Source: Ophelia neglecta
Lineage: Eukaryota
Reading direction: 5' to 3'
Length of the DNA: 64,000 bases
NCBI GenBank assembly: GCA_965285935.1
Contig: OZ260665.1
Span: 58,404,001-58,468,000 of the forward strand
Numbering within the stretch: position 1 is the first letter of the stretch; the number at the start of each line of letters is the position of its first letter. Under the pieces are notes generated by a model that was not told where the DNA came from, did no database searches, and worked only from the letters and a program-made list of their open reading frames with translations. A program made the translations under genes and the position numbers. Below, one piece after another: positions 15,201-57,280 of the stretch.

Positions 15201-15629
15201 ACTGGCTTCTCGGAATCGGGCGTGGCTCCAATCAATCTATCTCTACAGAGGCCCAGCTTTGTGGGAACACAGTGGCTTTGCTGAGTCAGGTGTTTGTGTG
15301 ATTGACAATTCAACCTCTTGCATGAATTCCCTCAGACAAATGGACAGCATTGCAACAGTTCAAATTTATCTTCAATTTGTGTAAAGTAACTATTATTTGT
15401 TTTTGGATACATAATTATTCTAACTTATATTGTTCGCTGCACACACGCGGCAGCAGTTTACTTGCTATTTATCTACAGCCACTTAAAGCTTAAAACCAAA
15501 AAAATGTTTGTTTGGATTTCGATAGAATAAAGTAGGAATTCTCACCGTGAGATCCCATGTTGGGAAACCCTCCAAGTCTATAGACGCCACCCTCTGAACA
15601 TACTGACGGACTATCTTCTCGGACGACAT
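31..15629 (-). CDS. ChAT: Choline O-acetyltransferase, spliced and 3'-partial: join(15629-15546, 5075-4972, 4839-4749, 4407-4289, 4077-4024, 3779-3599, 1427-1244, 242-31); 1029 nt = 343 aa; continues beyond the window start
   Basis: All eight exons have AG/GT boundaries and compatible phases. The joined translation carries choline/carnitine acyltransferase motifs ([51 protein letters not shown]). Position beside VAChT identifies it as ChAT rather than a carnitine acyltransferase. The catalytic His exon is outside the window. Confidence 0.95.
355..500 (-). mobile_element. SINE fragment, MESC/Meta-core type, with (AAACC)n tail
   Basis: CCAGTCACATTATACTGACACCGGGTTGACCAGT resembles, from recall, the core of mollusc MESC/MetaSINEs. 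The ttggt repeats at 355-375 form the tail. Confidence 0.6.
955..1046. mobile_element. Partial MITE related to the element at 7012-7172
   Basis: Ends in caggtttcactg and has internal ggtggtc repeats matching the reverse complement of the 7012 element. Confidence 0.55.
1244..1427 (-). CDS. ChAT: ChAT coding exon 7 (184 bp): [10 protein letters not shown]...[21 protein letters not shown]
   Basis: Acceptor gttttcgttttag|TTT, donor G|gtaagt; overlaps ORF-track 1236..1421. Confidence 0.95.
3599..3779 (-). CDS. ChAT: ChAT coding exon 6 (181 bp): [33 protein letters not shown]...[10 protein letters not shown]
   Basis: Acceptor ttccataaag|G, donor CAG|gtaccc; overlaps ORF-track 3590..3772. Confidence 0.95.
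4024..4077 (-). CDS. ChAT: ChAT coding exon 5 (54 bp): (R)[17 protein letters not shown](S)
   Basis: Acceptor tccttcag|A, donor TC|gtgagt; phase 2 to 2, bridging its neighbours in frame. Confidence 0.93.
4289..4407 (-). CDS. ChAT: ChAT coding exon 4 (119 bp): [39 protein letters not shown]
   Basis: Acceptor attacag|G, donor AG|gtcagt; conserved PLPVNSNP motif. Confidence 0.95.
4749..4839 (-). CDS. ChAT: ChAT coding exon 3 (91 bp): [30 protein letters not shown]
   Basis: Acceptor caactacag|A, donor TGG|gtacga; phase 2 to 0. Confidence 0.92.
4972..5075 (-). CDS. ChAT: ChAT coding exon 2 (104 bp): [34 protein letters not shown]
   Basis: Acceptor tttttaattgcag|A, donor AG|gtaagc; N-terminal LPKLP.P.L motif of the family. 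Confidence 0.95.
7012..7172. mobile_element. Tc1/mariner-type MITE
   Basis: TA|cagtaaaacctg ... caggattcactg|TA: imperfect terminal inverted repeats, TA target duplication, internal gaccacc repeats. Confidence 0.7.
11379..11820. mobile_element. MITE with CAG(T/A)GGCGTAGGAAG terminal inverted repeats and 5-bp TATGT target-site duplication
   Basis: tatgt|cagaggcgtaggaag ... cttcctacgccactg|tatgt. The G/C-run subterminal block is duplicated internally (about 11433-11531 and 11707-11820). Confidence 0.8.
13140..13460 (+). repeat. Diverged ~320-bp repeat; second copy at about 11090-11850, interrupted by the MITE
   Basis: Colinear shared blocks: aaggaattga..aggcctata, aagccac.tggt, aaaatagtc, tttcagttga.gta.att.tgcctaa.ttagg, taatgaac..ag.cttacta, atggctg. 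Confidence 0.7.
15546..15629 (-). CDS. ChAT: ChAT first coding exon, CDS part: [28 protein letters not shown] (whole exon 15720-15546)
   Basis: Strong acceptor gttttttttgcag| at 15721/15720. In-frame TGA lies 21 nt before the ATG. Phase-0 donor ACG|gtgaga joins in frame to KPLPKLP. The N-terminus is poorly conserved, so support is mainly splice signals and phase. Confidence 0.8.
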
Positions 15630-17384
15630 GGGTCTGTCTGTAGTGAGTCAGGGCTTTGGCGCTGGGCTCGGCCGGATGGGGTGGACGGGCTCAGCCACCC
15701 TTCAAACTAACTCGACTAGTCTGCAAAAAAAACACGATCTTTGTTTTTCAATGCGTATAAAACTGCTAATGTTTTTCAGTGAACTAAATTTCAACCGCTT
15801 TCAATTGTAGCAGGTGTGTCACAAGGTTGACCGTAACTTAATATTACTAGTACACACAATCAGTCAAATTTCATAGCAAGTTTACAATCAAATGGCAAAC
15901 CTTTTATCATAAGACCCAAGATAATATCCATGTACACACTAGATGCTCAAAAGCCTTGAACTAGATAGTTTGTCTGACTACATAACCGCATTTAATATAT
16001 TCTAGCAATAGAAAGATGTAGCCTAAGCTCTGAGATCACAACGAGACACTCCGATGTTGACCGGTCATGACAATTACTAGTGGTAAGTTCATTCCTAGTA
16101 ACAACATGCATTGTGAATTAACAATACACATCCACGACAATATCAGTTTTTCTTACCAAGTCACGCAGAGCATTTAGTTTCTGTCAATTTCCCACTGGTC
16201 AAGGGTGCTTTCTTCTATCATTTTATATCTTACATTCATTAAATAGGATTTGGAGTCTGGACTGTAAAAAAAAGCTCCCATCGCTTTCCAGTTTGACCTT
16301 GAAGGATGGATCTGAAGGATTTTATTTATAAGACTTCACGTCCTTGGTCTGAGATTTATTCGGTTTATTTCAAGATCCCGGATGTGATTGCGGCAAACAT
16401 CCCGTTAGAGGATGTCGAACGGAAGACAGCTCAGATCAAAATGGGCAAATACATTCCACTATTAAGACTTATTTAAGGGACTGTCGCGAACCGTGGCCTC
16501 GCCTTGGTTAATGCTAAAATCGATTTTCTTGCTCTCGATGGACTTTGCATTGTTCAGATGTTGATCCCGATCGCAATTCTGCTACGTTCTATCGACGGAT
16601 TCGGACGCAGACAACCAAGTTTAAGATATGAGAATATACAGGCGAACGAAATATCGGTTGGATGCGTCCCACGAGCCCCCTCCCCCCTCCATTGCCCGGA
16701 CAGACATGGAGACCCGTTCGATATCACGTGACTAATCAGCGTCCGAGTTAACGTTATTTCTCTTCCGACTCGATAGCTTGTGAAGAAACCTAAAATGGTT
16801 TTCATAAGAAGCTATTTCCTTTCCCGTATTTGAGAAGGATGTCACAATGCCACCATCTCAATAAACTGCCTTACTTAAAATCACGGTTTAATATAAAATA
16901 AAATCTACTGCTTGCAGGGAAGATGGCCAAATGTTGACAGCCTGGAAATAGCACATCCAAACCAATTCCGGTTTATGTACTCGTAAAAAAGAAGTCAGTA
17001 GATATCACAGATAAATTAATTAAAAAAACATGTTGAACAGCGAGTTGCCTATATTATTGCGGGCCTATATTCTAAGCTCATTTTTCATGGTGTTGATCCA
17101 ACAAACTTAAAAAAAGTTGGCCATCGTTCGAATTATTTCCGAGTGAGATGTTAAAACTGATTATATTAACTGTATAATTGATGGGTAATTTGCACAAAAT
17201 TGTGTTTGGTTAGAAACCCAGTGCAATATCAATGTACAATTGTTAGAAGGACATGTTGCGTTGGGTATGGTGAGGTGATGTGGCACCCCTTTTCTTTCCA
17301 GAAATAATCAAAGATAAACGGTCAGAATGTATAGTACCATGTGGGGAGGGAAAGGGGTATCCGGTAATTAAACCCGTAAGAGAG

Positions 17385-18980
17385 ACCGCACCCCACCCTT
17401 TCCAAGTGTGAGAAGACTCACGGGCGGAATGCAGTCTCAACAATACACTCTCCAATTGTGAGTTGACACAAAAGGCGAGGTGCAGGTCCCACCATACACT
17501 CTCCAAGTATGAGAAGACGAGATGCAAGCCACACCCTACACTCTCAAAGTGTAACTTGACTCAAATGCGAGATGCAGGCCACACCCTACACTCTCCAAGT
17601 GTGAGCAGACAAAAAGGCGAGATGGAGGCCACACCCTACACTCTCCAAGTGTGAGCAGACAAAAAGGCGAGATGGAGGCCACACCCTACACTCTCCAAGT
17701 GTGAGCTGACTCAAATGCGAGATGCAGGCCACACCCTACACTCTCCAAGTGTAAGCTGACTCAAATGCTCGATGCAGGTCCCATCCTTCGCTCTCCAAGT
17801 GTGAGTTGACTCAAATGCTAGATGCAGGCCACACCCTACACTCTCCACCTGTGAGCAGACAAAAAGGCGAGATGGAGGCCACACCCTACACTCTCCAAGT
17901 GTGAGCAGACAAAAAGGCGAGATGGAGGCCACACCCTACACTCTCCAAGTGTGAGCAGACAAAAAGGCGAGATGGAGGCCACACCCTACACTCTCCAAGT
18001 GTGAGCAGACAAAAAGGCGAGATGGAGGCCACACCCTACACTCTCCAAGTGTGAGCAGACAAAAAGGCGAGATGGAGGCCACACCCTACACTCTCCAAGT
18101 GTGAGCAGACAAAAAGGCGAGATGGAGGCCACACCCTACACTCTCCAAGTGTGAGCTGACTCAAATGCGAGATGGAGGCCACACCCTACACTCTCCAAGT
18201 GTGAGCAGACAAAAAGGCGAGATGGAGGCCACACCCTACACTCTCCAAGTGTGAGCAGACAAAAAGGCGAGATGGAGGCCACACCCTACACTCTCCAAGT
18301 GTGAGCAGACAAAAAGGCGAGATGGAGGCCACACCCTACACTCTCCAAGTGTGAGCAGACAAAAAGGCGAGATGGAGGCCACACCCTACACTCTCCAAGT
18401 GTGAGCTGACTCAAATGCGAGATGCAGGCCGCTTCCTACACTCTCCAAGTGTGAGCAGACAAAAAGGCGAGATGGAGGCCACACCCTACACTCTCCAAGT
18501 GTGAGCTGACTCAAATGCGAGATGGAGGCCACACCCTACACTCTCCAAGTGTGAGCAGACAAAAAGGCGAGATGGAGGCCACACCCTACACTCTCCAAGT
18601 GTGAGCAGACAAAAAGGCGAGATGGAGGCCACACCCTACACTCTCCAAGTGTGAGCAGACAAAAAGGCGAGATGGAGGCCACACCCTACACTCTCCAAGT
18701 GTGAGCAGACAAAAAGGCGAGATGGAGGCCACACCCTACACTCTCCAAGTTTGAGCTGACTCAAATGCGAGATGCAGGCCGCTTCCTACACTCTCCAAGT
18801 GTAAGCTGACTCAAATGCTCGATGCAGGTCCCATATTTCACTCTCCAAGTGTGAGTTGACTCAAATGCTAGATGCAGGTCACACCGTACACTCTCCAAGT
18901 GTAAGCTGACTCGACGGCGAGAGGCAGGCCCCATCCTACACTCTCCAGGTGTGAGCTGACTCACAGGCGAGATACAGGCG
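17385..18980. repeat. 50-bp minisatellite, about 32 copies (gatggaggccacaccctacactctccaagtgtgagcagacaaaaaggcga)
   Basis: Direct 50-bp periodicity with two interspersed variants and degenerate edges. Confidence 0.97.
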
Positions 18981-19299
18981 ACAAATTTCATCATCCTATA
19001 GCTAAATTGAAAGCCATCGACTAAAATAATGAATAGAAATGGCTCGTTCTCCTCTTGATGCTGCATTAAATGACTTTGATTTTCGATTTCTCCTCCTTGG
19101 CAGCAGGGATATCAGAAGTAATTCTCTCTTGTACAACGTAGCGTATTGATAGAACCATATGATCTTTGGTTTCTATATACTCGACGACTTGTAAAATCCT
19201 GCATGCACCGTTCCTTTGCTATGTCTATAGACCCCAATACATTTAAAAAATCGTCAGTCAAAATTGGTAAAAAGTGTACTGTTCTTTATTCTTTTTGGT

Positions 19300-20150
19300 C
19301 ATATGAACTAGGAGAGAAGGATATATGTTCCCCGAAATGGAGTTCCTTTTTGAATTTGATAAAAGGGGGCGTGGATGGTCATTTAATTAGCCAATGTACA
19401 TGCTCCAACCGTATAAGAAAATAATCAACACCATGTATAACATAAGCTTTATTTTTTACCAACAGCACACATTTTGTCTGTATACCATCAAGTGCTTACT
19501 CCTAATTTTCGACTAGTATTCGGGATCTATTTTATTTTGACAGTTTATATAACTTTCTTGAGAATGATGTATAGCTGCAAGATGTTTTTATCTATTTTGT
19601 ATTTGTTTATATTGCCGGAATCAATTAAAATTGTAAGTATAACAATCAATTCCTTTGTGCTTTAATAATGAAAAAATGTATACCGCATTGGGCCTAAATA
19701 GTTCATAAAGACTATGGGCAATGTTCAATCGCATTCCTCATGTATTATTGCATGAATACATGTTATAATTTTGTATTTGCTTCCTGCATTAGAATGCTCA
19801 AACGGCCTTCACATAGTGTTCCCAAAGGCATCACTATGTTACCTATTGTGATGATAACTGAAGCATTTTAATATGATGATATAGAACAAATAGATATTTT
19901 TGATGTGCCTTAGTTAATTTTACGCGAGCTTTTCCGTTGTTGATTCCCACTTGTCGTAAATCGGCGAGACCTACACCGCCTTTCTCACAGGAGGTAGAGA
20001 AAATGAATCGGTTAAGTGTTTCATTGACAGAGACTAGCAAACTAGCTGGGTTGTTTAGATTGATCAATAATCAGCGTGTCATCCCTGGTGGCTTCATGTT
20101 TGTTAAAATTGGAACCAGACTTCTTAAGATTGGTAGTGTCGAGTATCCTC
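19300..20150 (-). mobile_element. Decayed L1/Tx1-like LINE ORF2 C-terminal remnant
   Basis: Interrupted translation ILRSLVPILTN..LLINLNNP..VNETLNRFIF..EKGGVGLADL, then RILVEN and PFIKFKKEL, in the order expected for Tx1-type post-RT motifs. Contains stops and frameshifts. Confidence 0.6.
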
Positions 20151-20169
20151 TCCCTGAAGGAGGCGCGGG

Positions 20170-22560
20170 TCTAAAGCCCAGGGCCCGGGTCGAGGAGGGC
20201 ACATACCACAGAAACGCTCTCACAGAAAGGGGCGAGGGTCTTAGGTCCAGGGTTCGTGGTGAATGAGTGGACATACATCACACACCCTCTCACAGGAAGG
20301 GGCGAGGGTCTTAGGCCCAGGTTCATGGTGTATGAGTGGACATACATCACACATTCTCTCACAAGAAGGGGCGAGGGTCCTAGGCCTAGGTTCATGGTGT
20401 ATGAGTGGACATACATCACACACCCTCTCACAGGAAGGTGTGAGGGTCCTAGGCCTAGGTTCATGGTGTATGAGTGGACATACATCACACACCCTCTCAC
20501 AGGAAGGGGTGAGGGTCCTAGGCCCAGGGTCATGGAATATGAGTAGACATACATCACACACCCTCTCACAGGAAGGGGTGAGGGTCTTAGGCCCAGGTTC
20601 ATGGTGTATGAGTGGACATACATCACACATTCTCTCACAAGAAGGGGCGAGGGTCCTGGGCCTAGGTTCATGGTGTATGAGTAGACATACATCACACACC
20701 CTCTCACAGGAAGGGGTGAGGGTCTTAGGCCCAGGTTCACGGTGTATGAGTGGACATACATCACACATTCTCTCACAAGAAGGGGCGAGGGTCCTAGGCC
20801 TAGGTTCATGGTGTATGAGTGGACATACATCACACATTCTCTCACAAGAAGGGGCGAGGGTCCTAGGCCTAGGTTCATGGTGTGAGTAGACATACATCAC
20901 ACACCCTCTCACAGGAAGGGGCGAGGGTCCTAGGCCCAGGGTCATGGTGTATGAGTGGACATACATCACACATTCTCTCACAAGAAGGGGCGAGGGTCCT
21001 AGGCCTAGGTTCATGGTGTATGAGTAGACATACATCACACACCCTCTCACAGGAAGGGGCGAGGGTCCTAGGCCCAGGGTCATGGTGTATGAGTGGACAT
21101 ACATCACACATTCTCTCACAGGAAGGGGCGAGGGTCCTAGGCCTAGGTTCATGGTGTATGAGTGGACATACATCACACATTCTCTCACAAGAAGGGGCGA
21201 GGGTCCTAGGCCTAGGTTCATGATGTATGAGTAGACATACATCACACACCCTCTCACAGGAAGGGGCGAGGGTCCTAGGCCCAGGGTCATGGTGTATGAG
21301 TGGACATACATCACACATTCTCTCACAGGAAGGGGCGAGGGTCCTAGGCCTAGGTTCATGGTGTATGAGTGGACATATATCACACATTCTCTCACAAGAA
21401 GGGGCGAGGGTCCTAGGCCTAGGTTCATGGTGTATGAGTATACATACATCACACACCTTCTCACAGGAAGGGGCGAGGGTCCTAGGCCCAGGGTCATGGT
21501 GTATGAGTGGACATACATCACACATTCTCTCACAGGAAGGGGTGAGGGTCCTAGGCTCAGGGTCATTGTGTATGAGTAGACATACATCACACACCCTCTC
21601 ACAGGAAGGGGTGAGGGTCTTAGGCCCAGGTTCATGGTGTATGAGTAGACATACATCACACATTCTCTCACAAGAAGGGGCGAGGGTCCTAGGCCTAGGT
21701 TCATGGTGTATGAGTGGACATACATCACACACCCTCTCACAGGAAGGGGCGAGGGTCCTTGGCCTAGGTTCATGGTGTATGAGTAGACATACATCACACA
21801 CCCTCTCACAGGAAGGGGCGAGGGTCCTCGGCCCAGGGTCATGGTGTGTGAGTGGACATACATCACACACCCTCTCACAGGAAGGGGCGAGGGTCCTAGG
21901 CCCAGGGTCATGGTGTATGAGTGGACATACATCACACACCCTCTCACAGGAAGGGGCGAGGGTCCTAGGACCAGGGTCATGGTGTATGAGTGGACATACA
22001 TCACACACCCTCTCACAGGACGGGGCGAGGGTCCTAGGCCCAGGGTTCGTGGTGTATGAGTGGACATACATCACACACCCTCTTACAGGACGGGGCGAGG
22101 GTCCTAGGCCCAGGGTTCGTGGTGTATGAGTGGACATACATCACACACCCTCTCACAGGACGGGGCGAGGGTCCTAGGCCCAGGGTTCGTGGTGTATGAG
22201 TGGACATACATCACACACCCTTTCACAGGAAGGGGCGAGGGTCCTTGGCCCAGGGTTATGGTGTATGAGTGGACATACATCACACACCCTCTCACAGGAA
22301 GGGGATTAGGGTCTTAGGCCCAGGGTCATGGTGTATGAGTGGACATACATCACACACCCTCTCACAGGACGGGGCGAGGGTCCTAGGACCAGGGTCATGG
22401 TGTGTGAGTGGACATACATCACTTATTCTCTCACAGGAAGGGGCGAGGGTCCTAGGCCCAGGGTCATGGTGTATGAGTGGACATTCATCACACACCCTCT
22501 CACAGGAAAGGGTGAGGGTCCAAGGCCCAGGGTCATGGTGTATGAGTGGACATACATCCC
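20170..22560. repeat. 69-bp minisatellite, about 34 copies (ggacatacatcacacaccctctcacaggaaggggcgagggtcctaggcccagggtcatggtgtatgagt)
   Basis: Direct periodicity. The 23-codon unit explains the long repetitive ORFs on both strands. Confidence 0.97.
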
Positions 22561-22650
22561 ATATATTCTTCCATATATTCTTCGCGGGTCTAAGCCCCAT
22601 GGTCAGACCCCGGTTGTAGGAGGGGAAATACATTCCATACCCTCTAGATA

Positions 22651-22932
22651 CCAGAAGGGGGCGCGGGTCTAGACCGCGCTCTGTCAGAAGGGGGCGCGGG
22701 TCTAGACCGCGCTCTGCAAGAAGGGGGCGTTGATCTAGACCGCGCTCTGCCAGAAGGGGGCGCGGGTTTTAGCCCCGCTCAGCCAGAAGGGGGCGCTGGT
22801 CTAGCCCGCGCTCTGCCAGAAGGGGGCGCGGGTCTAGACCGAGCTCTGCAAGAAGGGGCCGCGGGTCTAGACCGCGCTCTGCCAGAAGGGGGCGCGGGTC
22901 TTAGCCCCGCTCAGCCAGAAAGAGGCGCGGGC
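22651..22932. repeat. 33-bp GC-rich minisatellite, 9 units (ccagaagggggcgcgggtctagaccgcgctctg)
   Basis: Unit starts at 22651, 22684, 22717, 22750, 22783, 22816, 22849, 22882 and 22915. Confidence 0.95.
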
Positions 22933-24639
22933 CAAAGTATCAGAGACCGGCGATTTAAAAAGAAATAAATGAAGAGACCCCGACTCCATAGTCCGTGGTC
23001 TTTTCGTGTTTCAGCAATAATAACCCTACAAATGAGCTTTCCTTTATTCCATTGCTTAAGACTTGCGAGCTTCACTATTCACATCAGTCGTTATTTGATC
23101 TTTGATTAGTTTGGTATGATATTTCATAGTTTCACATCAATCCTAGCCTAAAATCCCTTTAGAATCTAAAACCGAGGAAACTTTTTTGAGTTTGTGACAA
23201 AGTAACTTTTTATTTTCAAATGAATTACTTTTATGTTACACAAATAAACTATCACCACTAATAATCATGCATATCATAGTAAAATGCCTTTTTAAATTAT
23301 TGGACATGAATTGCATGAAACAATAGGAAAGTCAACTATATTAAGTATACCGAAACCTGTTGCTTTAAACAAGAAAAAAATCTTTTGAATTTTGAAACAA
23401 CAGAAATAAACCTCTATATTAAATATTGTTTTCCCCACGAAATCAACAATATAATATTAATGGCAGAAATCACCTCATATTCGCTTTACAACACTTCCAT
23501 TATATAAATTTACTAATAGAATAATCGCTGAAAACGCTACTGAGCAAAGAATTTGAGAGCAGTACTAGATGCAATGTCACTATGGTCTAAATATCAAAAG
23601 TTATTACTATCGATCGCTTTTTGCCTATATTAAACGGCTGAGCGCTTCTTCTATTGTGAATGGTTAAATTTGGAATTATACTTAAATTTATATTGACTTA
23701 TTACTATTGTCTTTGAACTGGCATTGAATCCATATCTAATTTAAAGGTGGATATATCATAAGAAAAAGTTGACATTAAAATATTGCGCATTAATGAATGT
23801 CCTATACTAATAATTATTATTGCCTTTGCAATATGGGTAGATTACAGCTCTAAGGTTGTATATAACAGGGCATGAAATTAAAAGATTTCAGTAATTAAGA
23901 TAACACGGTGAAAGCATCTAACGACACCGCTTAAAACTCACATCAATACCATCTTTACAATTAATATTACATAATTCACATTGCACAATTAATATTACAT
24001 AAGTTATGTACACCTTATTTGGCAGAACGGACACTCTACATGAGCATCACCAAAGGTGTGACCTCATCCTAAATAAAATAGTAACAAGGGCATATTTATT
24101 TACAGAATGACTCTGCATTCTCAATGCTCGTCAGTCGCTTGTGAAAGCCCAGCCTTTTTACTTGTGTGGCTTGTTATAATCACAGGTGCGCGAGGCGTCT
24201 GTCCGATGCTACCTATACACACACACATATATATATATGTAACTAAAGGTAGGAATCTCCCCGGCTTTGGGTCTGCCAGTTTGTTTGGACCTTCATAACA
24301 TCGCTGCTAAATTAGTTCAGCTGTGATTCTCGGCTACAGTGGCAATATCCGGTGGTAAAAGCACCACAAAAGGCCTTTACTCAAACTTGTGGTCGGTTTC
24401 ATTAAATTTAAGCGGTTTCTCGGCGAAAAAGAACATATCTCAAAAAAAACGCTACGAGAGGCCGTACATCTTGGTAAACAATAATGTTTAGTCGGGTCCA
24501 TCTTCGTGCGCGGTCGCTGATTGGCCAAAATTCCAAGCTAGATTTGATATTTGGATAAAATTACGGAAAGAAGTCCAGAAGTGGTTCGGGAAGTGCCTAA
24601 AATGCCCTAAAAACGATGCCAGTTACATATAACTGGGTT

Positions 24640-24839
24640 GGAGGGGAGCAAGGGGGCTTATATCACTGGGGTATATAAGCCTTAGGCTTCTCACCCCTGC
24701 CTTGTATTCTCACAGTAAGTTAACCCATATTGTTCTCTGTTTATTTGTATGTATGTGAGTGCGTGAGACAAAAAAAAAAGATTTTATTATGTAAATATAT
24801 ATATGTATGGCAAATAAATTTGATTTGATTTGATTTGAT
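24640..24839 (+). mobile_element. 3' end of a non-LTR retroelement (L2/CR1-like tail)
   Basis: aagcc-tta-ggctt stem-loop within gggg..cccc, then aataaa followed by (tttga)4. Confidence 0.5.
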
Positions 24840-25948
24840 AAATCGTATAATTGTTAAGTATTACAGGCGACTGTTAAGGCGCCCGAAAAACACACCGAAA
24901 GTAAGATATCGGGGACCAAAATGAAGGTCCCAACAAGCTGCAAGTGTTCCGGTGCGGCATTAACCCTGCACGCGCACTGCGGAGATGCATACCTTTAGTT
25001 AACCATACTGAGTTGCAGAGGACAGGCGCCTCGCGTATCTGTGGTTACAATTGTAAATAACACAGATTACGATACACATTATACATTAAAATAACCAGTT
25101 GGTTTGTCAACAACAGATGTGGAGCATCATTATCAACAATTACCTATAGAACATCAAAACTATATTTAGTGCACTCACTATATCCAGCTCAGATCTTAAA
25201 TTACGTACATCACAAACAAAGCTATAATTTGAAAGAACACCGTAATCGATGATGTCAAACACTTAAATAGGATGCACACGAGATTTAAACCGACACCAAC
25301 CAACCAATTTGGGGTGCTAGTTATTCAGCTACATATTCAGTATTGCACAGTGTCCCATGATTTAAATAATGAAGTCAAATGAGTGAAATGGGACTAGCAC
25401 CAAGTCTAGACAAAACACCCTCTCGGTGTCATATTAAAAATTGTCCTAATGCATTATGGTGAATTTTTTCTATGTCTTGACTACAATTCGTATACTACTA
25501 GCTGTTGTACAGACCGGATTCCGATGTATTTAATACGCCTATAGTCCATACACACATGTCTATTGATACTCTTGAAAATATGTGACGCACAAAGAATAAT
25601 ATTTTTATCAGACTAATTACTATAGCAGCATAACAATGTACATAATTTCTATCGGATGTCCTACTATAAAAAATGTGTTCTAACTTGCGTTCATGCAGTT
25701 ACCACAGCCACGGTTGAGAGCCTTCATTCCTTCCATATTTAGTACAATTCTTCAAATTCACAATTGCAACAGAATTGCAACTTTACATAAAACATCAAAG
25801 TTGTAAATGATAAACATATATACACTTCCTTAATTGACTAGACCTACATAACTGTTTTAACTCGGAACTTGACTATTAATTTCTTGAAATTAGGAATGTT
25901 TGCTTTGTTTACGCACATGTAAGACATAATAGTGATGCTGGGCTATGG

Positions 25949-27742
25949 TTAATGATAAGTTTTGAAATCAGACTCGGAATCGACAGAGTCATTAAGATCG
26001 CGTGCATATCTGACATGTCTTACAGTGCCAGAGTCTTCTGCACTTTGGAGGAAGGGATTGGTAGGGTGTGGCTGTTGTTGGCCATGCGGTGGGTAGCCCC
26101 CTTGCTCCCCTCCACCCCTGTACACAGGCCGACCATTACTTATCTGGGGGCCGGTGTTATACTCCTCCTTGGTTTGCTTGTCATCATGAATTATGTCGTA
26201 GCCATTACCCATCTGTTCTTTGGGTGTTGAGCCTGTGAGATTGTTCATCTGGTAGGTTTTGTACTGCTGACCAGTCTGAGTGCCGAACGGGGCTTCCTCC
26301 TCCTCCATCTCGTCCTCAAACGGCTTGTACTTGTAGATGTTTTTGAGAGAGTAGAGAAGTGGGGCGTAGATGATGTTACTGAGGAAGATTCCTACATTCA
26401 ACCAGACAAAACCGATGCTAGCCACTATCCCGCTGGCGACTATTGGCCCGAAGGCGTAGGCCAGGGAGTAGGAGATGTCGGCGATGGCGTACACTGACCC
26501 ATAGACGGACACGTGACGAACGTCAACCAGGTAGGCCAGCGTGGGGAGTACCGCTGTGTCAACCAGCGCGATGCCGAAGCAGTCGATCATCAACGGAATC
26601 ACCACCATCCCAAACCCGGTACAGAAGGGGACGATGAGACAACTGACTCCTTCCAGCGCCAGCCCCACCGCTGTGATCAGCCATTGTTTGGTGGGGTACT
26701 TTTTCATCAGCTTGACCGTCAGGTAGACTCCTAAAACGTGAGGGAAAAACGCCGGCAGCCAAACTATCCCCACTTGCCATTCAGCAGCGTTCATTGTTCG
26801 TGTCATCCAAGTGGCTATCGTAGGCTCCAAAAACGCCAATGATACATTGGCCATGACCAGTGCACCAGCACATACTGCGATGTACGGATCTATAATCAGA
26901 TGATGTATCGGGGTCCCCTTGGGCAATTCATCAGCCTTCTTCAACTGTAAGCGTTCCAAACGGACTGGCTTCATGACGAAGAACAACATTATACCGTCGA
27001 ACAGGGCTACAAGGGCTAGTATGACAAAGGGCACACTTTTCCCTGCAAACTCGTAGAGAACTCCGCCGAAAGGGGGCGCGAAGAGGCAGCCGAATGAGAT
27101 GAAGGCCAGGGCGATACCCTGGGCCCTACTACGGGCGTTTTCCTCTTTATATCGGTCTGCAATCATGGCTAATCCTGCCGTGTCAGCAAACGCGGAGCCG
27201 ACACCTTGCAAACTACGAGCGAAGAACAACAGTCCGTAGTCCTCACCGACGGCGAACAACATGGTGGAGAGGAAGATGACGAAAAGACCGATCATCATAG
27301 GGTAGTCATAGCCAACACGGTCGATAACCGTGCCAGAGATCGGGTTTACTAACAACTGGACGATGGCTTTGGAAGCAAATAAAAAGCCTATTCTAGCGTC
27401 AGAAGCCCCTGCATAAGGATTCAACGGAAATAGGTGATGTTTCGTTGTTTCATTAGCTTCACTGGCGTTTAAGTTGAGCTCTTGGTACTGGTCGTGAGTG
27501 TAATTCTTGCTATCATATTCATAATAATATTTGGTGGGGTCTAAGGGATCCCACTTGTCTTTGCTTTTCAGGTAGATGGGGATGATGGGGACGATGACCA
27601 TGTACAGCATGTTGTCGAGCAGGAGGGCCACACATACTATGATGAGCACCAGCCTTCGCTGAGTCTCTGGCTGGTGAATCTTGTCATTCAGACGGTCTCG
27701 CAGAAGCCCTAAGTCCAAGTTGAGGAAAGGTATCACAGTCAT
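25949..27742 (-). CDS. VAChT: Vesicular acetylcholine transporter (SLC18A3/unc-17 orthologue), intronless ORF, 597 aa MFS transporter
   Basis: SLC18 motifs [84 protein letters not shown]. Luminal loop 1 has three N-glycosylation sequons (NYT, NAS, NET). Same strand as, and upstream of, the ChAT coding exons. Confidence 0.98.
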
Positions 27743-30009
27743 CTTGCTTGATTCTCCTTTTACCGGAAATACACTATTTCTAACTTCCTTCTGGAATGTT
27801 GGTGTTGCGTAAACTGAGCTTCCGGTTTCAGTTGATTGTGTCGAGTGGTGGCGTTGTATCTTTTTACTTTTTTACCATCGAGCGTTGAGCCGGAAGAATT
27901 ACCAAAGAGGGCGTATCAGAATTCGATATCTTGTTCCTTGTCTTCGATGTAGATTGTTTGTACAGCACGGCTGCAACGCTTGGTCCAATCGACCAGCTCG
28001 GCAATGGATCCTTGTCACGACAATCAATTCTCCCGGAACATAGAACACCATTAATTACCGCTATTCACAATTCACCTGCTATTTTGCCTCCTCTACCTCC
28101 CTTATTTGTTAGCCGGTGTTATATTTGGAGCAAATAATAGTTAAAATCCAATTCCAATTTGGTTTACTTGTAATGAACAAACAGCACATTTATCCAACTT
28201 ATACTGACTATATATCCAACGGGTTAAGTATCCACACTGCGATGTTAATAGACGATTCGTCCAAAATGGATGATTTTTTGTATCCGGTATTCGGGGTTGA
28301 GTGTCGTCTGCCCGTCTCCCTTAAGAAGGAAGAGAGATAACACAGTCAGTTTTTATCCGTTTAAACGATGCAGTTGACGAGTGGCTTGAAACAAAATGCA
28401 CAGGACTCCACGGAACGTTCAGTTCGATTTAGTTCATGAAAGTTCTAGAATTATTAACAGTTACAATCAAGGGAGGGTTTGAGGCAGTCAGGTTCAATAA
28501 GAGTTCTCCTTTTCCTCGGATGAGGGTGAATTTTGCCTGGCAGGTTTCTCGCACCCAACCACCTTCGAATCAATAAACTCGGCCGTCTGAACCAGCACAT
28601 AAGAAGGTGCTCGTTGACTGCCAAATACGCTCATTTTCTGCCTTCTTGAGCATTCACTGGCTTCTGTCTTGGCAGGTTAGACAGGGTTGCACACTCTGAA
28701 GGATATTCCGCAAAACTGTTCAGGAGTGGCCTAAATAAAGTTTCATCTATAACGACTCTACGCGCGAAAACTTGAATGATTAAAACACCGGTTCGTCCCA
28801 GCTGTGCACGTTGCTTCTTGCCAACACACCACTCAAGTAGGATTATTGACATAAAACACACTCATTTAGTAGACTCAAACACAAGTCTAACTTTCGAATT
28901 CAACAGTTGAAGAGGTTTTAATTACAGAAACAATCATGCACTACAACAATTATACTTTCAAAGTAAAAGACGAGTATTTCCAAAAAGCAGCATGTTTTTT
29001 TTAGTAGTTTGAAGAGATGAGATGTTTATTTAGCAGTTTTTCAATTTGTAAACTCACACTGTTCTTTTTGGTCTAGTTTCGTTGTGAACATTTTCCAAGT
29101 GTCTCAGATTTACATTATAAACATCCCATTCGGAGATATCCGTTATTTATCATGTATATTTACTCAAAATTTAGTAACACTATTTGCAAGAAAAGCCAGT
29201 TCGAATGGTATAGTACTGGTCTATTTTTTAAACAAATGACGAAACACAGTTGTAAACGTGTAACAGGGTACGATTCCTCTTTAGTTTGAGACAGTTTCTG
29301 CACACAGACACGGGAAATTAGAACGAAGTACACTTCTGGTGCATGGTGCGTTCCTTATTGACTTATATTAGATCATCTCGACGCCCTAATGCCCACTGCG
29401 AAAGACCATCTAATTCAAATATTTACCTGAGCAATTTGCTTGTGATGTTCCATACTAAAGTCCAACAATGTACTAAATGCCTGCAATATGCGACATTTGC
29501 TGTTCTCATTTCCAAAGACGCCGTTGGAATTTGTATTTTCAATCTCCCGAGTTGAGCAGAACTGAATTGCTCGACAAATGCACGAGTCCGCCGTTCAAAG
29601 ACGTCTATGACCATTTGAAACCACAATTTAACCCAAAAGTTGTTCCCTGGAACCCAATACTCCCTTATACCAATTTTTCCTGATAAACATAAGGTACCAC
29701 TTTCAACGAAAGACACAATTAAAGTTATATCTTTCCTGTTTAAATTATACAGGACGTACACAGAACACCAAGGGTTCATTATCACAAAAGGCTTTGTTAT
29801 TCTGTGATCTACTAGATCCTGGCCTAAATAAGACACGAGTAAGTTGGTCCCTTAACTACGAATTAACTGTTAGCTGTATTTTATATACACCTCAATTAAA
29901 AATGAGATATCAAAAAATGTTGTCAGTTTTTTTAGTCTCAGGCCTTGAGCTATTGCTTTCCCTTGGTAGAAATGAAAAGCATAAAGTCGTGTTAGTTCAC
30001 GCATTGCCT

Positions 30010-30187
30010 AATTTCGTGCTAATTTGCGGCAGGAAATCAGCTTATTTTGCGCACATTCATGCAGGTTCACTCAATGTGTAATTCCGCGCAGAAAAAAATA
30101 AACCTATTCCGCGTACTTTTAAACACACGGTGGAGACTTCATACTTCAAGAAATTAAACGATGCGTGACATAACCCGCCACTGCCCT
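30010..30187. mobile_element. Dispersed MITE-like repeat, copy 1 of 3
   Basis: The end aattaaacgatgcgtgacataacccgcc is the reverse complement of the start of the 33641 copy; internal attccgcg repeats. Confidence 0.55.
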
Positions 30188-33500: not shown

Positions 33501-33640
33501 AACAGCACGTTTAAGGCTATGTATTCAAACAATATATAGTAAAAGCTGTCAACAAACATTGTGTTCAGTGATCAGAGACAGATTGAACAGACACGGCCCC
33601 AGCACCACACACGATTGAACCCCGCTTGCAAATTAAACCA

Positions 33641-48900: not shown

Positions 48901-51900
48901 AAACAAGATCATTGTCAAAGATAACACCCAATAAATAAAAGTATACAGAGGCCTGGAGAACTGTTAAGTAATTGATCAGAGACTCACAAGATGGCGGCAG
49001 CTGCATACTTACACCTCCTCCATTCCATGGAACAAAACCGGGCTACATATGTACTAGACAAGGTCTACTCTAAACGGTGTAAGTGCCGAAGGACGAATGA
49101 TGAAGGGCACACCATTTGATACATGTTAACTTGTACTGCTCTTGAAGGGCATTGACGAGTAAATAGCGTGCTGTGACATAATTTCAAATTTGATGAATTA
49201 CATGTTTTTCAAGTCCTCCTTTCCTTCCCCTCAACTTGATCTGCATCCCTTGGCACCACAAGGTTCTGCCATGAAAACACGAACGACTTATACGGAATGT
49301 GATTAGGGTAATATAATTTTTCCTATTTACCGGCTGCACTCTTGGTTCGCTTTACTACAAACAAAGTACCATACCACCACCTATTTGTCTTGCTTTGTTG
49401 TTGGGTTGTAATAGTAATGTAGTTAAATTTAGCGGCGATGGCAGTAAGTTACTTTGGCACTCTGATGGGACTGCAGGGCCAGAACACAGTGGGCTAATGT
49501 ACACCATCATTCATTCACACCCAAGAAAAATGTGACAGAGGCATTAGTGTTCAGACGAATTTTACTTCAAAGATCTTTAATCTAGTTGTTTGAAAACTTT
49601 GGTGCGTATTATGTAGCTAGCTCTTATATAGCAGGTATACCAAGTAATAGCAATAAACTTGACTTGACTAAATAAAGAGAACACTTGGAGTCATCTAGAA
49701 ACTCGGGCTATTTTCGCTTTAGGCAGCGTCTCGAGTTTTAATCGGAGGAACTCAATTTCGTCATGAGGCATCCGCGTGTTGTTAATATCAAATTACTCAG
49801 CACTGATCTATTGTCTTGGTATGTGTCTGGCAATTCTGGCCTCGACTCTTTCAAATTCCGTGTGCATGGAGAGTTATAAATATCGCCTTTTTCTGATCGG
49901 GAACATCCTTAGCCTAATGAATAAATACCCCAGCAATATACCGCTTTTGGAGAGGTTTTCCTCGATTTTATCAAGGGAATTACTCGAAACCAAGTGCTTG
50001 ACAAATCAATGATGTTCGTCGACTCTATCCAAATAAAATCATTATAGTCGCTATTTGAATGGAAATAGATGATTAGAAGTGCAAATTTGTCTTCTCCAAG
50101 ACAACCTGCAGGAGGATATTAGCAGACACGACACAGCCAACTCATTAGAATGCAATGTACGAAAGAAACCCTTCTTCACAAGGTCAACCGAGCTTGGATA
50201 AAGGCGGCGGAAATCAGCCACTGGCTTTTGCTACTGCTCAACAATTTGGGAAAGATTAAACGAGACTTGCCAAATCATATCCCGCGGACAATTTATATCT
50301 TTGGTTGTATTTGTATGGAAGATGCTTTGAGATGAGAATGCCGTATTTCTTTCTTGTGATCTAAACAATAATCTGATTCTGTGTATGATTACACATGAAA
50401 ATTAAGATTTACATAAAAAGAAATATCTTTCACAGTGGGGGAGAGGCGGGGTCGTTGATGGCTCTATCGATTTGACAGAAGGCCAGAAGCATTAAAGAGA
50501 CAATGTATCAAGTTATTACGACAAGTTAAATTTATTGAGCTTTATGGGTTGTGTCTTAACTTGTGTGTAATAATACCTATTCTAGAGTTCGCCTCAGTAT
50601 CAATAATAAATGATCCCCTTAGCAGCGAGCCACTGCAACAGATATGTGGTTATTGATGGAAACAGCGTCCTTAGAGAGCCACTACTTTCCAGAGACAAAG
50701 AGGCAATGGATGCTGCTTTCCAATTTAGAGGCTGTGACCAATATCTGCAGCGTTTCGACAGTCCCTTCGAGGTTATCTCAATCATTTGCATGGAGAAGAA
50801 AAAAGAATAGCTGAGTGGATAACACGCTAGATTCACAACGCTAAACCCTGGAGAAAAAAAAAACCCTCTATATGACATGGCCTCAGATGGAAAAGAGAGG
50901 TCAAAGTCAGTAATTTAATGCAGTTCTTCAACTCCATTGATTTGTCTAACAAAACTGCCAATGGGCTATGAAGTCGGTACATATTAGCCAGTCCAGAAAC
51001 TGTAAGCAGATCCAAAGATGAGGCATTTGCCAGGATTCCAAGTAAATTTGAGCTTAAGAGTGGCGGACTTTACATGACGTGCTAGTCATGAGGACTTGAC
51101 GGAGGCGGAAACGACATGACGGCGGGCAACTAGATACGCCAACTCCTCTGCTTACTTCCGGTCGCCTGTGAAATGCTCTTCCGAAACACTCAGGTTTCGT
51201 AAGGAACTACATTTAAATACATCCCCAGTCTCAAAAGCCTGCGAAATCAGGCAAATGCTACAGTTTGGCTTGAATTATCAGCCAAGCTTCATGTTTAATA
51301 TCGCTGTGTAGGCTGTACGCATCTGAGATTTGATGGCTGGTTACAGAGCGTATATGTCATACATTCACATGTTTATGACCCGTTAAAGTTGGACATTCTT
51401 ATTGCACTGCCTTGCCCAATCCTTTTGCTAAGAATCTAAAGACGGTCATTCCCGATTGAAATTTGTGAGAGTGGACAATTCTAACTTCGCTTTGTAGCCA
51501 TTGTTGCTACTAATAGCTCCCTCGATGAGCTTAAAATGGTATAGTGATGTTTAAGATTGTTTCTTAGCAGTCCAACTAGGCTCGACTAACAAGATTTCCC
51601 CCGAGCACTCACACCTCAAGCGACAAGTGCGAGCCAATACAACAGTTTAGAATTCAATTACCGCACACTCAAACTGGGTAATTGAGAATATGTGGAACCG
51701 AGGGTGCCGCCATCAAGCCCATCTTCCCCAATCATGGCCGTTGACTTACTGCCGTCCTGGTGTAATAGAAATGTAATGGCTGCTGATTACGGTTCCATAT
51801 TTATAGGCTGAGCACGGCTTAGTCAGTCTCGGTCACCATGGATTTACGGCTGCTGTCTTAAGTGTCCAACGTCATAGATCAAAGGTCAACCTCTCCAGCG

Positions 51901-54274
51901 TACCACAAAGAGCGGAATGACCAGCCACAAACAAGCGAAGACAAGGATTTTATTGGTCCTGCAGCGGACAATCATAATGAACTTGTAACCTGTCATGCCA
52001 AGCAAGTATGCATAGGATGTTCAAAAGAAAGTCTTAACTTGTTTTCAATTAATTGTACACAAGTATGTATAGAGTACTTTTGGGACTTTTTCGAAGTCTT
52101 AAAACATAACAAGTGAATGTGAAGTGGAATGCAAATTGGGAAAATATCCATAACGCCGGGATGTTGATTACAGAGAGGGCTATAGACAAGAGTCGCTGGT
52201 GATCGCAAATGACAGCCGCTAGCTTCACCAACAAAACCAATTAAACTCAATCTTTATCGTTTTTTTAATATTTGAGGTTGTTGAGGTTGTTGAGGGGCAA
52301 AGCGCTTTAAATGAATAGACCTCTATTATGTCAACATGTATACCAACATGACTCAAATGTTTCCAAAGGTCAAAGCAAACATTTGATTAAGATTTAGGAT
52401 TTTTTAACTTAATTCATCTGTCGCTGATGGTTTAATTATGCACCATCTTTGGAGGTAATTGCCTTAAATTTCTATGACACCATAGGCCTGTAAGGGACGT
52501 GAAATGGCCTGTAAGTGTCTTCTTAAAAATGGGAATGTTTCTTATTCTGAGCAGGATCGGCTCGAGATCTAGATCGGACTCAATACATTATTATACTTTA
52601 TTTTATTTTATTAAGGATGGGATTTGCTTCATCACTTAGACACAGAAATAAGACATGCATGGATTAAAAAACTAATACTGTAACAGATTTTAACAACACA
52701 ACAAACAAAAGGGGAGGTTACTTGCATTCTTAATGAATTCTACGTGCTATAGGCTATAGCAGGTCATTAATGAACGATCAACCCTAATGAGCATAATGTA
52801 GGCTTAAAACTGTCCGAGATAAATATATCTTTTGATTCTCCAAATCGCCATTGAACTGTAGAAGCCACATTTAATCCAATCAGGGTGACCATTGGAAAGC
52901 CTTTGTGCGATACTCACAGTTCAAATGGCAAGTCATTCCTGATCTTTAAATGACTCGCCCTCTCTTTTCCAAGGTAATAAAGCCCAGCTCGATAATTAAA
53001 GACGAAAACAAAAGTCACCGGGCAAGTTCAGCCCGATTTATAGGGCGCCAAACGATCTATGACAGTAGTATAAATGTCGTCTACACACGGGCATTTCACT
53101 TTCTACGTCAAGAAGCGAAATGCGATACAACTGCTGTAAGAAGATATTGCGCCAACGGCTCGTAAATATCGGGAAAACAGTTAACGAGAGTATCGGCAAC
53201 GAAGCTGGTCGGAGGATACAGGGCGGCTGCAGGAAGCCAGAACGATCGTCTGGCAATGGGGTCGCAAACCCCTGTCGTAATATTTAAAAAAGTCTGTTCA
53301 TCAGAGGGAATACATTATAGACTTATTTGTAGTAAAATGAAGTACAATTTGAAGTTAAAGTTGAAGAAGTGTACGCAATATATTAAAATAGATACAGCCA
53401 TTTCTCGATATGTATATCAATGCTTAGGCTGAAGTTGGTTTCTCCATTACCAACGCATTACTGTAAAGCGATGAAAGATATGAACATTTTGACAGTTTTT
53501 AACTTTTTTTTCTCAGTTGCCCTAACGAAGCGTGTGTCTTCTGGGGTGATTGATGTAAGCGGGCCTGCAGCTGAGTGATGATTGCTGGCCGATATAATGA
53601 TTATTTTCGTTTACTGGTTTTCCTTTGTCTGCCGGGTATCCAATCATGATATTGTGTGTGTCTCTGTATATGTGTGTATGAGTGTGCGTGTTTTGCGTGC
53701 GTGCGTGTGTGGCAGGGATAGATTTTAATATTAAAGAAGGACAACTCAACATCATGACTTTAACACAGTCAGTATAGCTGATTCAGAAATAACCTTATAC
53801 GTATAAAAATGCCAGCGCATTTACCATCAGAGGCAGACTTCAGACACGTCATACATATATAATATGAGTTGGCCCTCGTTACAAATCTTCTTACACAGTA
53901 CCTGACAGCTGACCGATGTAAATGTCCTTGAAGCAAAAAGGAACACCCTCAAAGTAGTTTTCAGCAGTTGAGCCTCTCATGTTCAGACAAAGAGAGAAGA
54001 ATCTTCAGTAGCTTATCGTCTTGTAACAATTGGGGACTGTAGTACGAGTAAAAAGGGCTTACCGCAAAATTTGATTGGTCCTACTTAGGTGAAAAAACAG
54101 CACATTAATATTACTAAAATTAAAAGAATATTTGTGCCCACATGTTTAATACCGTTCCATAATAGTACTACGTTTTAACAATCAATGAAGGGTTCTTTGG
54201 TCATCTATGGTCCCTTTCGGACGTACCGACCATAAGGATAAAGGGTGATCCGGCTATCAGGGGAAAGGCTAAGG

Positions 54275-54600
54275 ACTGCGATAGGAAATCAAGTAGCTAT
54301 TCAATGGACTCGCTGTGGCAACTTGTAGAAAAAAGGTGGGTCCTTTCCGCATCTCAATAGCCAGATGTCTACTATTGCGGTCAATTAATTGCATGAAGTA
54401 ACTTCCTGTCTAACCTGATAAAACTAGTCGTGTTCATAAAATATCCATTAACCAAATATATAAGTAATTCGACATTAAGACTGGGTCTGGAAATCAAGTG
54501 TTTTGAATGAGCTCTCTGTGTGGCAACTTGTATTTAAAAAATAAGTACTTGCCCCTTCTCTGTATAGGCGCTAAACTAATTTTGCGGTAAATTTATTGCG
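54275..54600 (+). repeat. Diverged tandem duplication, period about 205 bp
   Basis: ggaaatcaagt ... tgtggcaacttgta ... ttgcggt.aatt.attgc occurs at about 54275-54395 and again at about 54480-54600. Confidence 0.7.
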
Positions 54601-56858
54601 TTTTTGAGAATAAAAAAGAATCACATATACACATACTGAGTGTGAGTTTGTTCACATTTTTAAAACAAGTTGTTCAAACTTTAAAAAAAGAATAGGTATG
54701 AGATATACAGCTTGTCGTCTGCTTCTTAAACTTAACGTCTGCTGTCAAGACGATGTTGCCTGTCGCCGTTCATTACGAGAGTTGATTTCATTCGATAGTT
54801 ATGACGAAGTGTAAGAAGCCCACCAAGTAACGTACCTGCGGAAAGAACAGTGATTCAACTCAGGCCGGGCTGTCGGCCAGTCGGCTGAATCAGGCTCACC
54901 TGACATCACCGGTCATGGTGGTACAATGCCGAGAACACTGTTATAAGCAGCAAACGCAGGGTTGCTTAGACGATCATCGGTTATTTTCTATACCAGAGAT
55001 ATGCGTACAGCGTCCAATTAATAAGATGACCTACCGGAAGGTAGCATGGAAGCTAAAGCATTGAATTGTTCACAGGAGGCAGTTGAGACGAAATTTATTT
55101 GGGTTGAGCAACTAGTTTTCTTATAAGCTGCATATTATTAGCCTTTATAAGTAAAAGACAAATGGAAATATAATTCAATGGTATTGTAAAAAGTAGCATA
55201 AATATATTTTAGTTAATATTAAAATAATTTGGCACAGAGAGCCCCCGACGCAATGGAGAAGTTGCTTAAATTGCCCCCTAATTTAGATGCCATTTCTTTT
55301 AAAAATGTGTGTATTCATCATTGTAACAAGCCTATTAACATCTGTGGGACTGGACATAAGTGTTTGTGGCCCTACGGCAGATGGTTCATAATAACATTGG
55401 ATAAGTGTAATGAAAAATTCTTACAAGATAAACAAGGATACTAACCTACAGATTTACACTAAGGTCTATCTCTTGCAGAGACACACAGGAAACTTGATTT
55501 TTCTAGGAAATATGTAGTATAAATCATGTCTTCATAGTGAAGAAAGTAATTGCATTACGAACTAACTCTTACTGGAGGAAATTATACTAAATTGATCATG
55601 AAAAATCACCCTTAACATTTTAAATCACTTTAATCAGTTTGTAACCTACCTGGGTAGTCTATGAAGATAAACACTTGACGCATTTTAGTAAAGGTGTGAT
55701 ATGGCTTGCCATTTGCTTTAATTAAGAAGTCCGGAATCGATGTAAAAAAAAAGAAGTAAACCGTTATTTTTGCTACGCTTAATACATGTGAATTGATATT
55801 GCAACGAAGCTAATAAAAGTTGACATAAATGATAAACAGTATTAATTCATTTCTTTTGAAACTGAAAACGTCCCTGAGTGGTTTGCAACGACAGGGCCTT
55901 TTGTCTTGAGTTAGTTGTTCAGCTTTCCACATAAAGGGCCGAGCACATATGGAATCAAGCATTTGAAGTCCGATGGTCATCAAATAACTATACCATTTCA
56001 ACCGGATAATATAGATTTATCCATTTAACATCCATTTACATAACTATACGACATATCGACATTATGCAACAACTTCCCTCAAGGTTCAGAATAGGATGCT
56101 TAATTAACTTCTAACAAATATATTGGAATTCATGACGAAAAAACGATTTAATTGGTAGATTTTTTCATTTCTCCATCATAATGGATAAAAAGCTAGACGG
56201 CCTGAATTTGGAGTTTCATAAGTGGGAGAGAGTTAGTTTGCCGTGCGGTGAGTGTCTCCTCTCACGATGGGGTTTCAACTTGTTGAATTTAAGCCACCAG
56301 CCCCCTATCCCTCCCAACCCCCTCCTCTCTCTGGGAGGTTACACCCATCTCGCACTCTTCAGATTGTATATATATGTAAACTGTAAAAATAACTGATCTT
56401 CCATTCTCACCCCCACGACTCTAAATCGGGCAGAGATGTTTTAAAGTTGCTTAAATAAACAGTCGGACCCATGCATGTGATAATAATTTAACTCACACTT
56501 AAATGTAACGATCCACAGCAAAGGTCAGACCGGTCCTAATGTTCAAATATTTTGCCTATTATGTGTTCCATGTTCATTTACAATTCCTAAGGAGCAAAAA
56601 CGCCCCACGCAGTCTCGTAAGTGGCAAGTCAAGGCCCTCGTGTCGGATGCGCTTGCTTCCCCTAAGAATGTCATCGTAAGCTTGTTTCCCTAACAAGGAC
56701 CTTCTCTGATGCCAAGAAGCGCTCCGCAAGTAATTGGAAAAAGATAAAGGCTACACGGCACTGTTAGATGACTACGCTTGGGGATGACTGATCTTTTAAC
56801 GACACAATCACACATCAAAGGCTACGCTTTAGAAAAACTACCAAACGCCAGTACTTAC

Positions 56859-56875
56859 CCGTTTTCTGCTCGGCC
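56859..56875 (-). other. Candidate 17-nt non-coding microexon
   Basis: gtgttcttttcgcag|GGCCGAGCAGAAAACGG|gtaagtac: near-consensus acceptor and donor 17 nt apart. Confidence 0.45.
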
Positions 56876-57063
56876 CTGCGAAAAGAACACGCCAAATGAT
56901 TACGATTGTTTTCAGGCTTGTACATTTGTGCCAATCTACTCAACTTGCTGTTCAAAGCTGAACTAGCGAGTTTCTGATGTATAAGCTCACTACATCACTG
57001 GTGTTTAGCTCCGACCATCAACACGAGTAGTAGATCGAGTTTACTTCAGGAGTTACAACTCAC

Positions 57064-57280
57064 CTGTGATCGCAGAGGTTCGGAGAGGGCAAGGTGCTTG
57101 GCAGACGACTGACCTCGATTGGGACACACTTGTGACCTCTGTGGCGTGGTCTGAAGTGAGGTCTCCCAGGAGACGCGCGTCTTATGCTTAACAAGAATCG
57201 GTGGCGCCTCTCGCCTCCTACAGACACAGGACACTTCGTCATAACCTCGGACTCCCACACCCGCTATATATATATAAATG
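57064..57280 (-). promoter_or_regulatory. Candidate promoter and first exon of the cholinergic locus
   Basis: Locally GC-rich. Consensus donor CAG|gtgagt at 57064/57063, Inr-like TCAGTC (57112-57107), TATA-like (TA)n at about 57265-57277, COE-like site at 57164-57173. The TSS cannot be fixed from sequence alone. Confidence 0.5.

Follow-up and report, generated by a model that had tools for sequence, protein, structure and literature searches.

The cholinergic locus, in which VAChT lies nested within ChAT, is an old and well known arrangement. In C. elegans (unc-17/cha-1), the 2015 work of Mathews et al. reportedly found that the proximal VAChT acceptor and the distal ChAT acceptor compete and that paired elements promote distal splicing, and I know of no other system in which the division of one transcript between enzyme and transporter has been worked out. 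That work is cited with respect to C. elegans in the available part of PMC13299628. I consider here the corresponding locus of the annelid Ophelia neglecta, contained in a stretch of 64,000 nucleotides (contig OZ260665.1 of assembly GCA_965285935.1, positions 58,404,001 to 58,468,000) that I will call the window, and in particular the splice acceptor that precedes VAChT and the candidate non-coding exons, farther upstream, that VAChT and ChAT may share.

Among the closest described systems, and within the parts of those papers that were available, the VAChT open reading frame (ORF) of Ixodes occupies one exon, and an 82-bp shared exon 1 is spliced to either gene (PMC7524744). Ciona likewise has its VAChT ORF in one exon, with a short, non-coding shared exon 1 spliced to either gene (PMC8719597). 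The locus of O. neglecta is like both in its one-exon VAChT ORF, on the same strand as ChAT and upstream of the ChAT coding exons, and unlike both in that its best candidate for a shared exon has an acceptor of its own and would be internal rather than exon 1. Mammalian CHAT/SLC18A3 has additional non-coding exons, N, M and S, downstream of VAChT, and ChAT has 14 coding exons in mouse (PMC13163293, in part), as in the O. neglecta model. The two further share a VAChT that has no introns and precedes every ChAT coding exon and several non-coding 5' exons (candidates only, in the present case), except that the extra candidates here lie upstream of VAChT. As described for Drosophila (PMC5057162, in part), VAChT would arise by alternative splicing within the ChAT unit; unlike in Drosophila, the ChAT ATG lies downstream of VAChT. 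The literature search found no account of how the exons of an annelid cholinergic locus are arranged or of an AAG acceptor before VAChT, which does not establish their absence from print.

The coding part of the locus and the intervals tied to it are these.

25949 to 27742, minus strand: VAChT coding sequence (SLC18A3 type)
15546 to 15720, minus strand: first coding exon of ChAT, identified by homology, with a 91-nt leader, the ATG at 15629, 28 codons and a strong distal acceptor
31 to 5075, minus strand: ChAT coding exons 2 to 8 (5075-4972, 4839-4749, 4407-4289, 4077-4024, 3779-3599, 1427-1244 and 242-31)
15721 to 30522, minus strand: VAChT-containing intron of the ChAT isoform, 14,802 nt if its putative boundary at 30523 is right, with three tandem arrays inside
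24740 to 24788, minus strand: candidate VAChT poly(A) signals, the first AATAAA hexamers after the stop (24788 and 24745)
25534, minus strand: candidate VAChT poly(A) signal ATTAAA

VAChT is read in one frame of 597 codons on the minus strand, from the ATG at 27742 to the TAA at 25949, without introns and at full length by comparison with its homologues. The protein belongs to family MFS_1 (Pfam), its best named matches are annelid (Capitella, 61% identity; Platynereis VAChT, 69% over 80% of the query), and a tree of 111 sequences places it within the annelids, next to Capitella. The ChAT model is complete, comprising 14 exons, six of them in the neighboring stretch L001, and encoding 695 aa that are 68% identical to Owenia ChAT. 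The 28 residues of exon 15720-15546 align with the N-termini of ChAT from Owenia, Lingula, Mytilus and Lineus, and the position of this exon, taken with the 695-aa model, puts the start of ChAT downstream of VAChT. The two orthologues are adjacent, both on the minus strand, with VAChT upstream of the ChAT catalytic exons and within the presumed ChAT unit, and the locus is a cholinergic gene locus of a kind already known. The same order, VAChT and then the ChAT N-terminal exon, is repeated in relative loci L053 and L071, and the database names in Lingula (ChAT as isoform X1, VAChT as isoform X2) hint that the pair is annotated there as one gene. A preliminary description of the window had proposed just such a nested locus, with an intronless VAChT between a 69-nt stretch and the ChAT ATG exon. 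The orthology, order, strand and ChAT model agree with that proposal, and each named feature was found at its position.

Splice sites were scored by three matrices: a generic one, one made from the 13 ChAT introns, and one made from 39 introns of this genome, the 13 of ChAT plus 26 of clathrin (the RNA polymerase gene was left out of training, having no close full-length reference). The 13-intron matrix was too weak to discriminate and was therefore replaced by the 39-intron matrix. With respect to the acceptor of VAChT, the features are as follows, a slash marking here and below the point of splicing.

28320 to 28350, minus strand: likely VAChT 3' splice site, with CTGAC branch motif, pyrimidine tract and AAG/G
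27743 to 28319, minus strand: likely 5' untranslated part of the VAChT terminal exon, 577 nt, with four upstream ATGs
28308 to 28373, minus strand: weakly predicted local multi-arm hairpin

Judged by its sequence context, the proximal VAChT acceptor is likely to be 28319, which lies 577 nt above the VAChT ATG, ranks first in the window with the generic matrix and has an AG-free zone of 63 nt. Its AAG ending is rare, seen in 1 of the 39 known acceptors of this genome. It was one of two candidates proposed earlier, and it is the one favored by a branch motif, the AG-free zone and like sites in relatives. The other, 28730, was rejected, since it falls in the 13th percentile and lacks a branch motif; a branch motif is absent also at 28586 and 28695. 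A moderately good donor is found at 28076, 244 nt inside the presumed VAChT exon, with no strong acceptor between it and the ATG.

The comparison with relatives draws on VAChT loci from metagenome contigs, the best 80 of 112. A pyrimidine tract followed by AAG/G precedes VAChT in each of the three other annelid lineages examined. It ranks first in the window and in L012 and L013, where it lies within an identical block of 36 nt, and second in L011 (the null expectation for rank 1 being 0.01-0.03). Among the 51 loci in which VAChT is preceded by 700 nt or more, it comes first in 8 and within the top two in 13, as compared to 1-3% and 3-7% of control windows. In a further annelid clade of 15 loci, TTGAAG/G is invariant in all 11 sequences aligned (three near-duplicates and one short locus were left out). 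The tract with AAG/G occurs also in six loci of an arthropod clade (rank 1) and in L073 of a bivalve clade (rank 2), and many other loci are without it, including those that group with bryozoans and most that group with rotifers. A branch motif accompanies 14 of 18 of the relatives' AAG sites; for true acceptors the figure is 25 of 39, and for random positions 27%. A CAG in the upstream stem arm was considered as the conserved acceptor of the 11-sequence clade and rejected because 4 of the 11 sequences lack the AG. Fifteen transcript-versus-genome pairs among the relative loci yielded no junctions.

Three observations speak against giving the AAG site this role. The 39-intron matrix ranks 28319 only third within 1.5 kb, under 28586 and 28695, in part because of its AAG ending. 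The TTGAAG/G sites of the clade rank only 2-10, or 3-12 with the 39-intron matrix. Finally, the AAG motif was noticed in the same relatives before it was counted there, and the relatives' sites are putative.

The preliminary description, while naming 28319, had overlooked both the weakness of its AAG and a stem predicted to occlude the corresponding site in relatives. A long-range helix reaches p ≤ 0.02 in 14 of 20 sequences (13 annelid sequences and the bivalve L073), and 13 of the 14 relative annelid sequences have a predicted long-range stem over or beside the AAG acceptor. Pairing across the acceptor is predicted in the 11-sequence clade, where the partner element lies about 190-260 nt upstream; the helix has 25 pairs, with 95% of cells paired and 3 compensatory pairs. 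In L012, L013 and L073, a different upstream element is paired with the pyrimidine tract itself, and L011 shows a long flanking stem whose strength is borderline (z -1.7). On these models it is highly likely that RNA pairing covers the weak acceptor in related annelids, and the stems resemble the pair said to flank the proximal acceptor of C. elegans. Within the window, an 8-bp helix (28333-28326 with 28322-28315) is predicted with a probability of about 0.8 to cover both tract and AG; a 72-nt fold, its folded stretch chosen after the fact, has a z of -2.1; and the opening energy at 28319 is greater than at any of the 13 internal ChAT acceptors. That a local hairpin covers the acceptor in O. 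neglecta may be entertained as a tentative prediction.

Several results count against a structural role. The covariation in the 11-sequence clade, though reached by only 1 of 500 shuffles, was judged by shuffle controls that ignore the relatedness of the sequences. The long-range helix is not significant in the window (p 0.50; duplex p 0.085), and the test failed also in L011 and four arthropod loci. The opening energy at 28319 is ordinary in a wider comparison, in which 44 of 263 strong AG sites reach it as well. No pairing of donor with distal acceptor survived 18 helix tests (whole intron p 0.76, L053 p 0.48). In this respect the window departs from what is reported of C. elegans: no donor/distal-acceptor pair was found, and its own stem is local and weak. 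A search by blastn for complementarity between the donor and the ChAT acceptor gave a best E of 1.0, and short elements could escape both this search and the helix tests; Rfam gave no matches in five sources.

Two other pairings may be recorded. One of the 18 helix tests suggests a 16-bp helix between about 28589-28574, above the VAChT acceptor, and 16623-16608, which precedes the ChAT acceptor by 0.9 kb (nominal p 0.04). An inverted repeat, 16447-16481 with 29847-29881 (71% paired), was set aside, as neither blastn nor the helix tests recovered it.

The acceptor of the ChAT ATG exon (CAG, 15720) is strong, in the 82nd percentile of true sites, and for this reason some exon upstream is required, as the preliminary description had argued of a non-coding one. 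I propose that one precursor would give rise to either VAChT or ChAT mRNA through a choice between two 3' splice sites, with a shared non-coding leader, likely of more than one exon, preceding both. Because its AAG/G acceptor is weak, the VAChT site could be either used or skipped by the spliceosome. If used, the message would end after VAChT (AATAAA at 24788 or 24745); if skipped, splicing would proceed to the strong CAG at 15720, 12.6 kb on, and yield ChAT. If the proximal site is weak and in part concealed, enough transcripts would get past VAChT, and enzyme and transporter would be expressed together in a fixed proportion. That the leader is shared and the acceptors are alternatives is very probably correct. 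I am evenly divided over the explanation as a whole, that is, one precursor, a multi-exon shared leader and alternative acceptors, and it must be held against it that the exon joins are predictions from splice-site-like sequences.

It is conceivable instead that, as in mammals, the two genes have independent promoters, that of VAChT near 28.3-31 kb and that of ChAT downstream of VAChT, and make little or no use of a shared exon. Minor exon candidates (16941-16875 and 16256-16234) do lie in a CpG-richer patch at 16250-17000, mammalian non-coding ChAT exons are located downstream of VAChT, and VAChT-specific promoters in intron 1 of mammals figure in the title of a reference cited in PMC13163293 (available in part, for both points). 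However, the acceptor-like site before VAChT has been kept in four lineages of annelids, two of which have stems predicted to occlude it, and this makes sense only if VAChT can be skipped and is joined to an exon farther upstream. I consider independent promoters improbable.

For the shared leader favored here, three candidate exons stand out.

30523 to 30591, minus strand: candidate shared internal non-coding exon, 69 nt
56859 to 56875, minus strand: candidate microexon of 17 nt, 188 nt below the donor at 57064
57064 to 57280, minus strand: candidate first exon or, with an acceptor at 57217, internal exon of 154 nt

The implied intervals are 26,472 nt from 57064 to 30591 and 14,802 nt from 30523 to 15720. 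The 69-nt candidate is preceded by ...ttttcttacag/ and followed by /gtgagt, with a branch motif (TTAAC) at -24, an AG-free zone of 95 nt and an acceptor, 30591, in the 82nd percentile of true sites; it is present in single copy. It ranks first of 273 with the 39-intron matrix and second of 2329 AG sites in 15721-57300 with the generic matrix, and in neither case does the opposite strand offer an equal. By the generic matrix, 0.12 exon candidates as good or better are expected by chance per 41.6 kb. From this I lean towards the 69-nt stretch as the last shared exon, and an internal one. That was also the earlier proposal, of which one part stands, as this is the best candidate in 41.6 kb, and another does not, as the candidate is not significant over the whole interval and has no detectable sequence relative.

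The case against the 69-nt exon consists of four results. By the 39-intron matrix the chance expectation rises to 0.47 per 41.6 kb, with 39% of simulations reaching its score. By the 13-intron matrix it is only 15th, with 16.8 expected by chance. The upstream regions of 13 relatives contain nothing similar in sequence. A 66-nt look-alike in a like position in L013 shows no sequence similarity (p 0.27), and an antisense hit scores above it.

The chance expectation of 0.47 also counts in favor of a classical locus, in which a single first exon is shared and intron 1 contains VAChT. In that case, either the exon that ends at 30523 would start at a nearby promoter, its acceptor being due to chance, or the exon ending at 57064 (or at some other donor) would join 28319 and 15720 directly, the 69-nt stretch being a pseudo-exon. 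This is the layout of ticks, Ciona, Drosophila and mammals, where a common exon or promoter precedes VAChT, so far as the available parts of PMC7524744, PMC8719597, PMC5057162 and PMC13163293 go, and the upstream blocks that align across the 11-sequence clade reveal no obvious conserved internal exon. A classical locus accords poorly, however, with the percentile of the 30591 acceptor, its branch motif and its AG-free zone, with the fact that the top two exon candidates are both in sense orientation, and with the CpG profile, which has no clear promoter peak just above 30591 (nor has it one at 57200). I regard a single shared first exon as unlikely. Were it correct, the locus would be an ordinary member of its family. 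An internal shared exon, if true, would qualify the rule that VAChT lies in intron 1 and would move the promoter to about 29 kb from VAChT, a matter of importance for annelid cholinergic reporters.

A strong acceptor at 30591 without any distant first exon would be explained as well by a trans-spliced leader joined there, making the 69-nt stretch the first genomic exon and the sites at 57 kb unrelated to it; nematodes and tunicates trans-splice. I think this very improbable, in view of the very strong donor upstream at 57064 and of a genome paper according to which the annelid Dimorphilus lacks spliced leaders, "similar to other annelids" (PMC7854359, in the part available).

Returning to the multi-exon leader, the donor at 57064 (CAG/gtgagt) is the best of the interval under both usable matrices, with 0.07 and 0.55 expected by chance. 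A TA-repeat with a TATA-like run lies near 57276-57264, and 56800-57300 is single copy. From these sequences, transcription might start near 57250, a placement I offer with some hesitation. The earlier identification of 57064 as the donor of the first exon holds in so far as no better donor exists in the interval, and is weakened by the acceptor at 57217, which could turn the exon into an internal one, and by the want of a CpG peak. The 17-nt candidate, overlooked in the preliminary description, ranks first with the generic matrix and second with the 39-intron matrix and has no branch motif; that it is an exon is possible and rather doubtful. None of the 80 frames of at least 68 aa in 28000-64000 matches Pfam, and so no rival coding owner of the splice sites was found. 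As judged from such sites, a multi-exon shared leader is plausible but unproven.

The DNA contigs of three sequencing runs (one sample at most) cover 30 of 30 bins in 23000-42900 and in 50000-58400. Within these intervals introns and intergenic DNA are covered evenly, and the contigs contain no splice-like joints, a result on DNA that is silent on expression.

The VAChT acceptor appears to be a better supported and more testable lead than the multi-exon leader. The rare AAG acceptor and the stems predicted in several lineages of annelids name exact bases for minigene work, in a third major branch of animals. In its broadest form the idea would be that a conserved weak AAG/G sets the ratio of VAChT to ChAT in annelids, and possibly also in bivalves and certain arthropods, and that different lineages hide it in independently built stems (covering the AG in one clade and the tract in another, and formed here by a local hairpin), below a 26-kb multi-exon shared leader with a 17-nt microexon and an exon bearing a minimal upstream ORF. 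In all its parts together this is a speculation that I would not expect to hold.

The upstream ORF in question is ATG-TGC-TAG (30531-30523), with which the 69-nt candidate ends, the stop being the last three bases of the exon; these two codons would be present in both mRNAs. Elsewhere in the upstream interval, a strong donor at 54900 is followed after 64 nt by a strong acceptor at 54836/54835 and then GTACGT (AG/GT), on the minus strand and in single copy, a pair that resembles a recursive splice site or a tiny intron.

Below VAChT, a repeated element (24664-24779) adjoins the first poly(A) hexamers, with a contig depth of 260 versus about 30 in run X1, and VAChT coding sequence at 26095-26121 has 93% complementarity to a 27-nt arm at 24632-24658. 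The tandem arrays of the window are at 17514-18973 (50 nt, 29 copies), 20217-22558 (69 nt, 34 copies), 22651-22931 (33 nt, 8.5 copies) and 58507-59552 (34 nt, 31 copies). The first three, which are situated between VAChT and the start exon of ChAT, give long repetitive frames.

Non-coding comparison of the window with the 80 related loci gave no convincing match. Within the annelid clade, a non-coding block of about 600 nt (L064, about 5070-5660), 1.84 to 1.25 kb above VAChT, is some 70-78% identical across the clade, with counterparts in L015, L047, L049, L053, L059, L061 and L067, and it contains a second tract with TTGAAG and a palindrome. Rfam has no match to it in the three clade loci scanned; it is possibly an enhancer or a structured RNA. 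In clade members L049, L050, L053, L064, L066 and L090, the matches to VAChT are split into two or three pieces. Outside the locus proper, a frame of 329 aa with no Pfam match lies just past the end of ChAT (L001:3299-4285, plus strand), L007:2211-3461 (minus strand) encodes a hydrophobic protein of 417 aa with a sub-threshold match only, and L003:3798-5072 (plus strand) encodes a PRISE-like Rossmann-fold protein.

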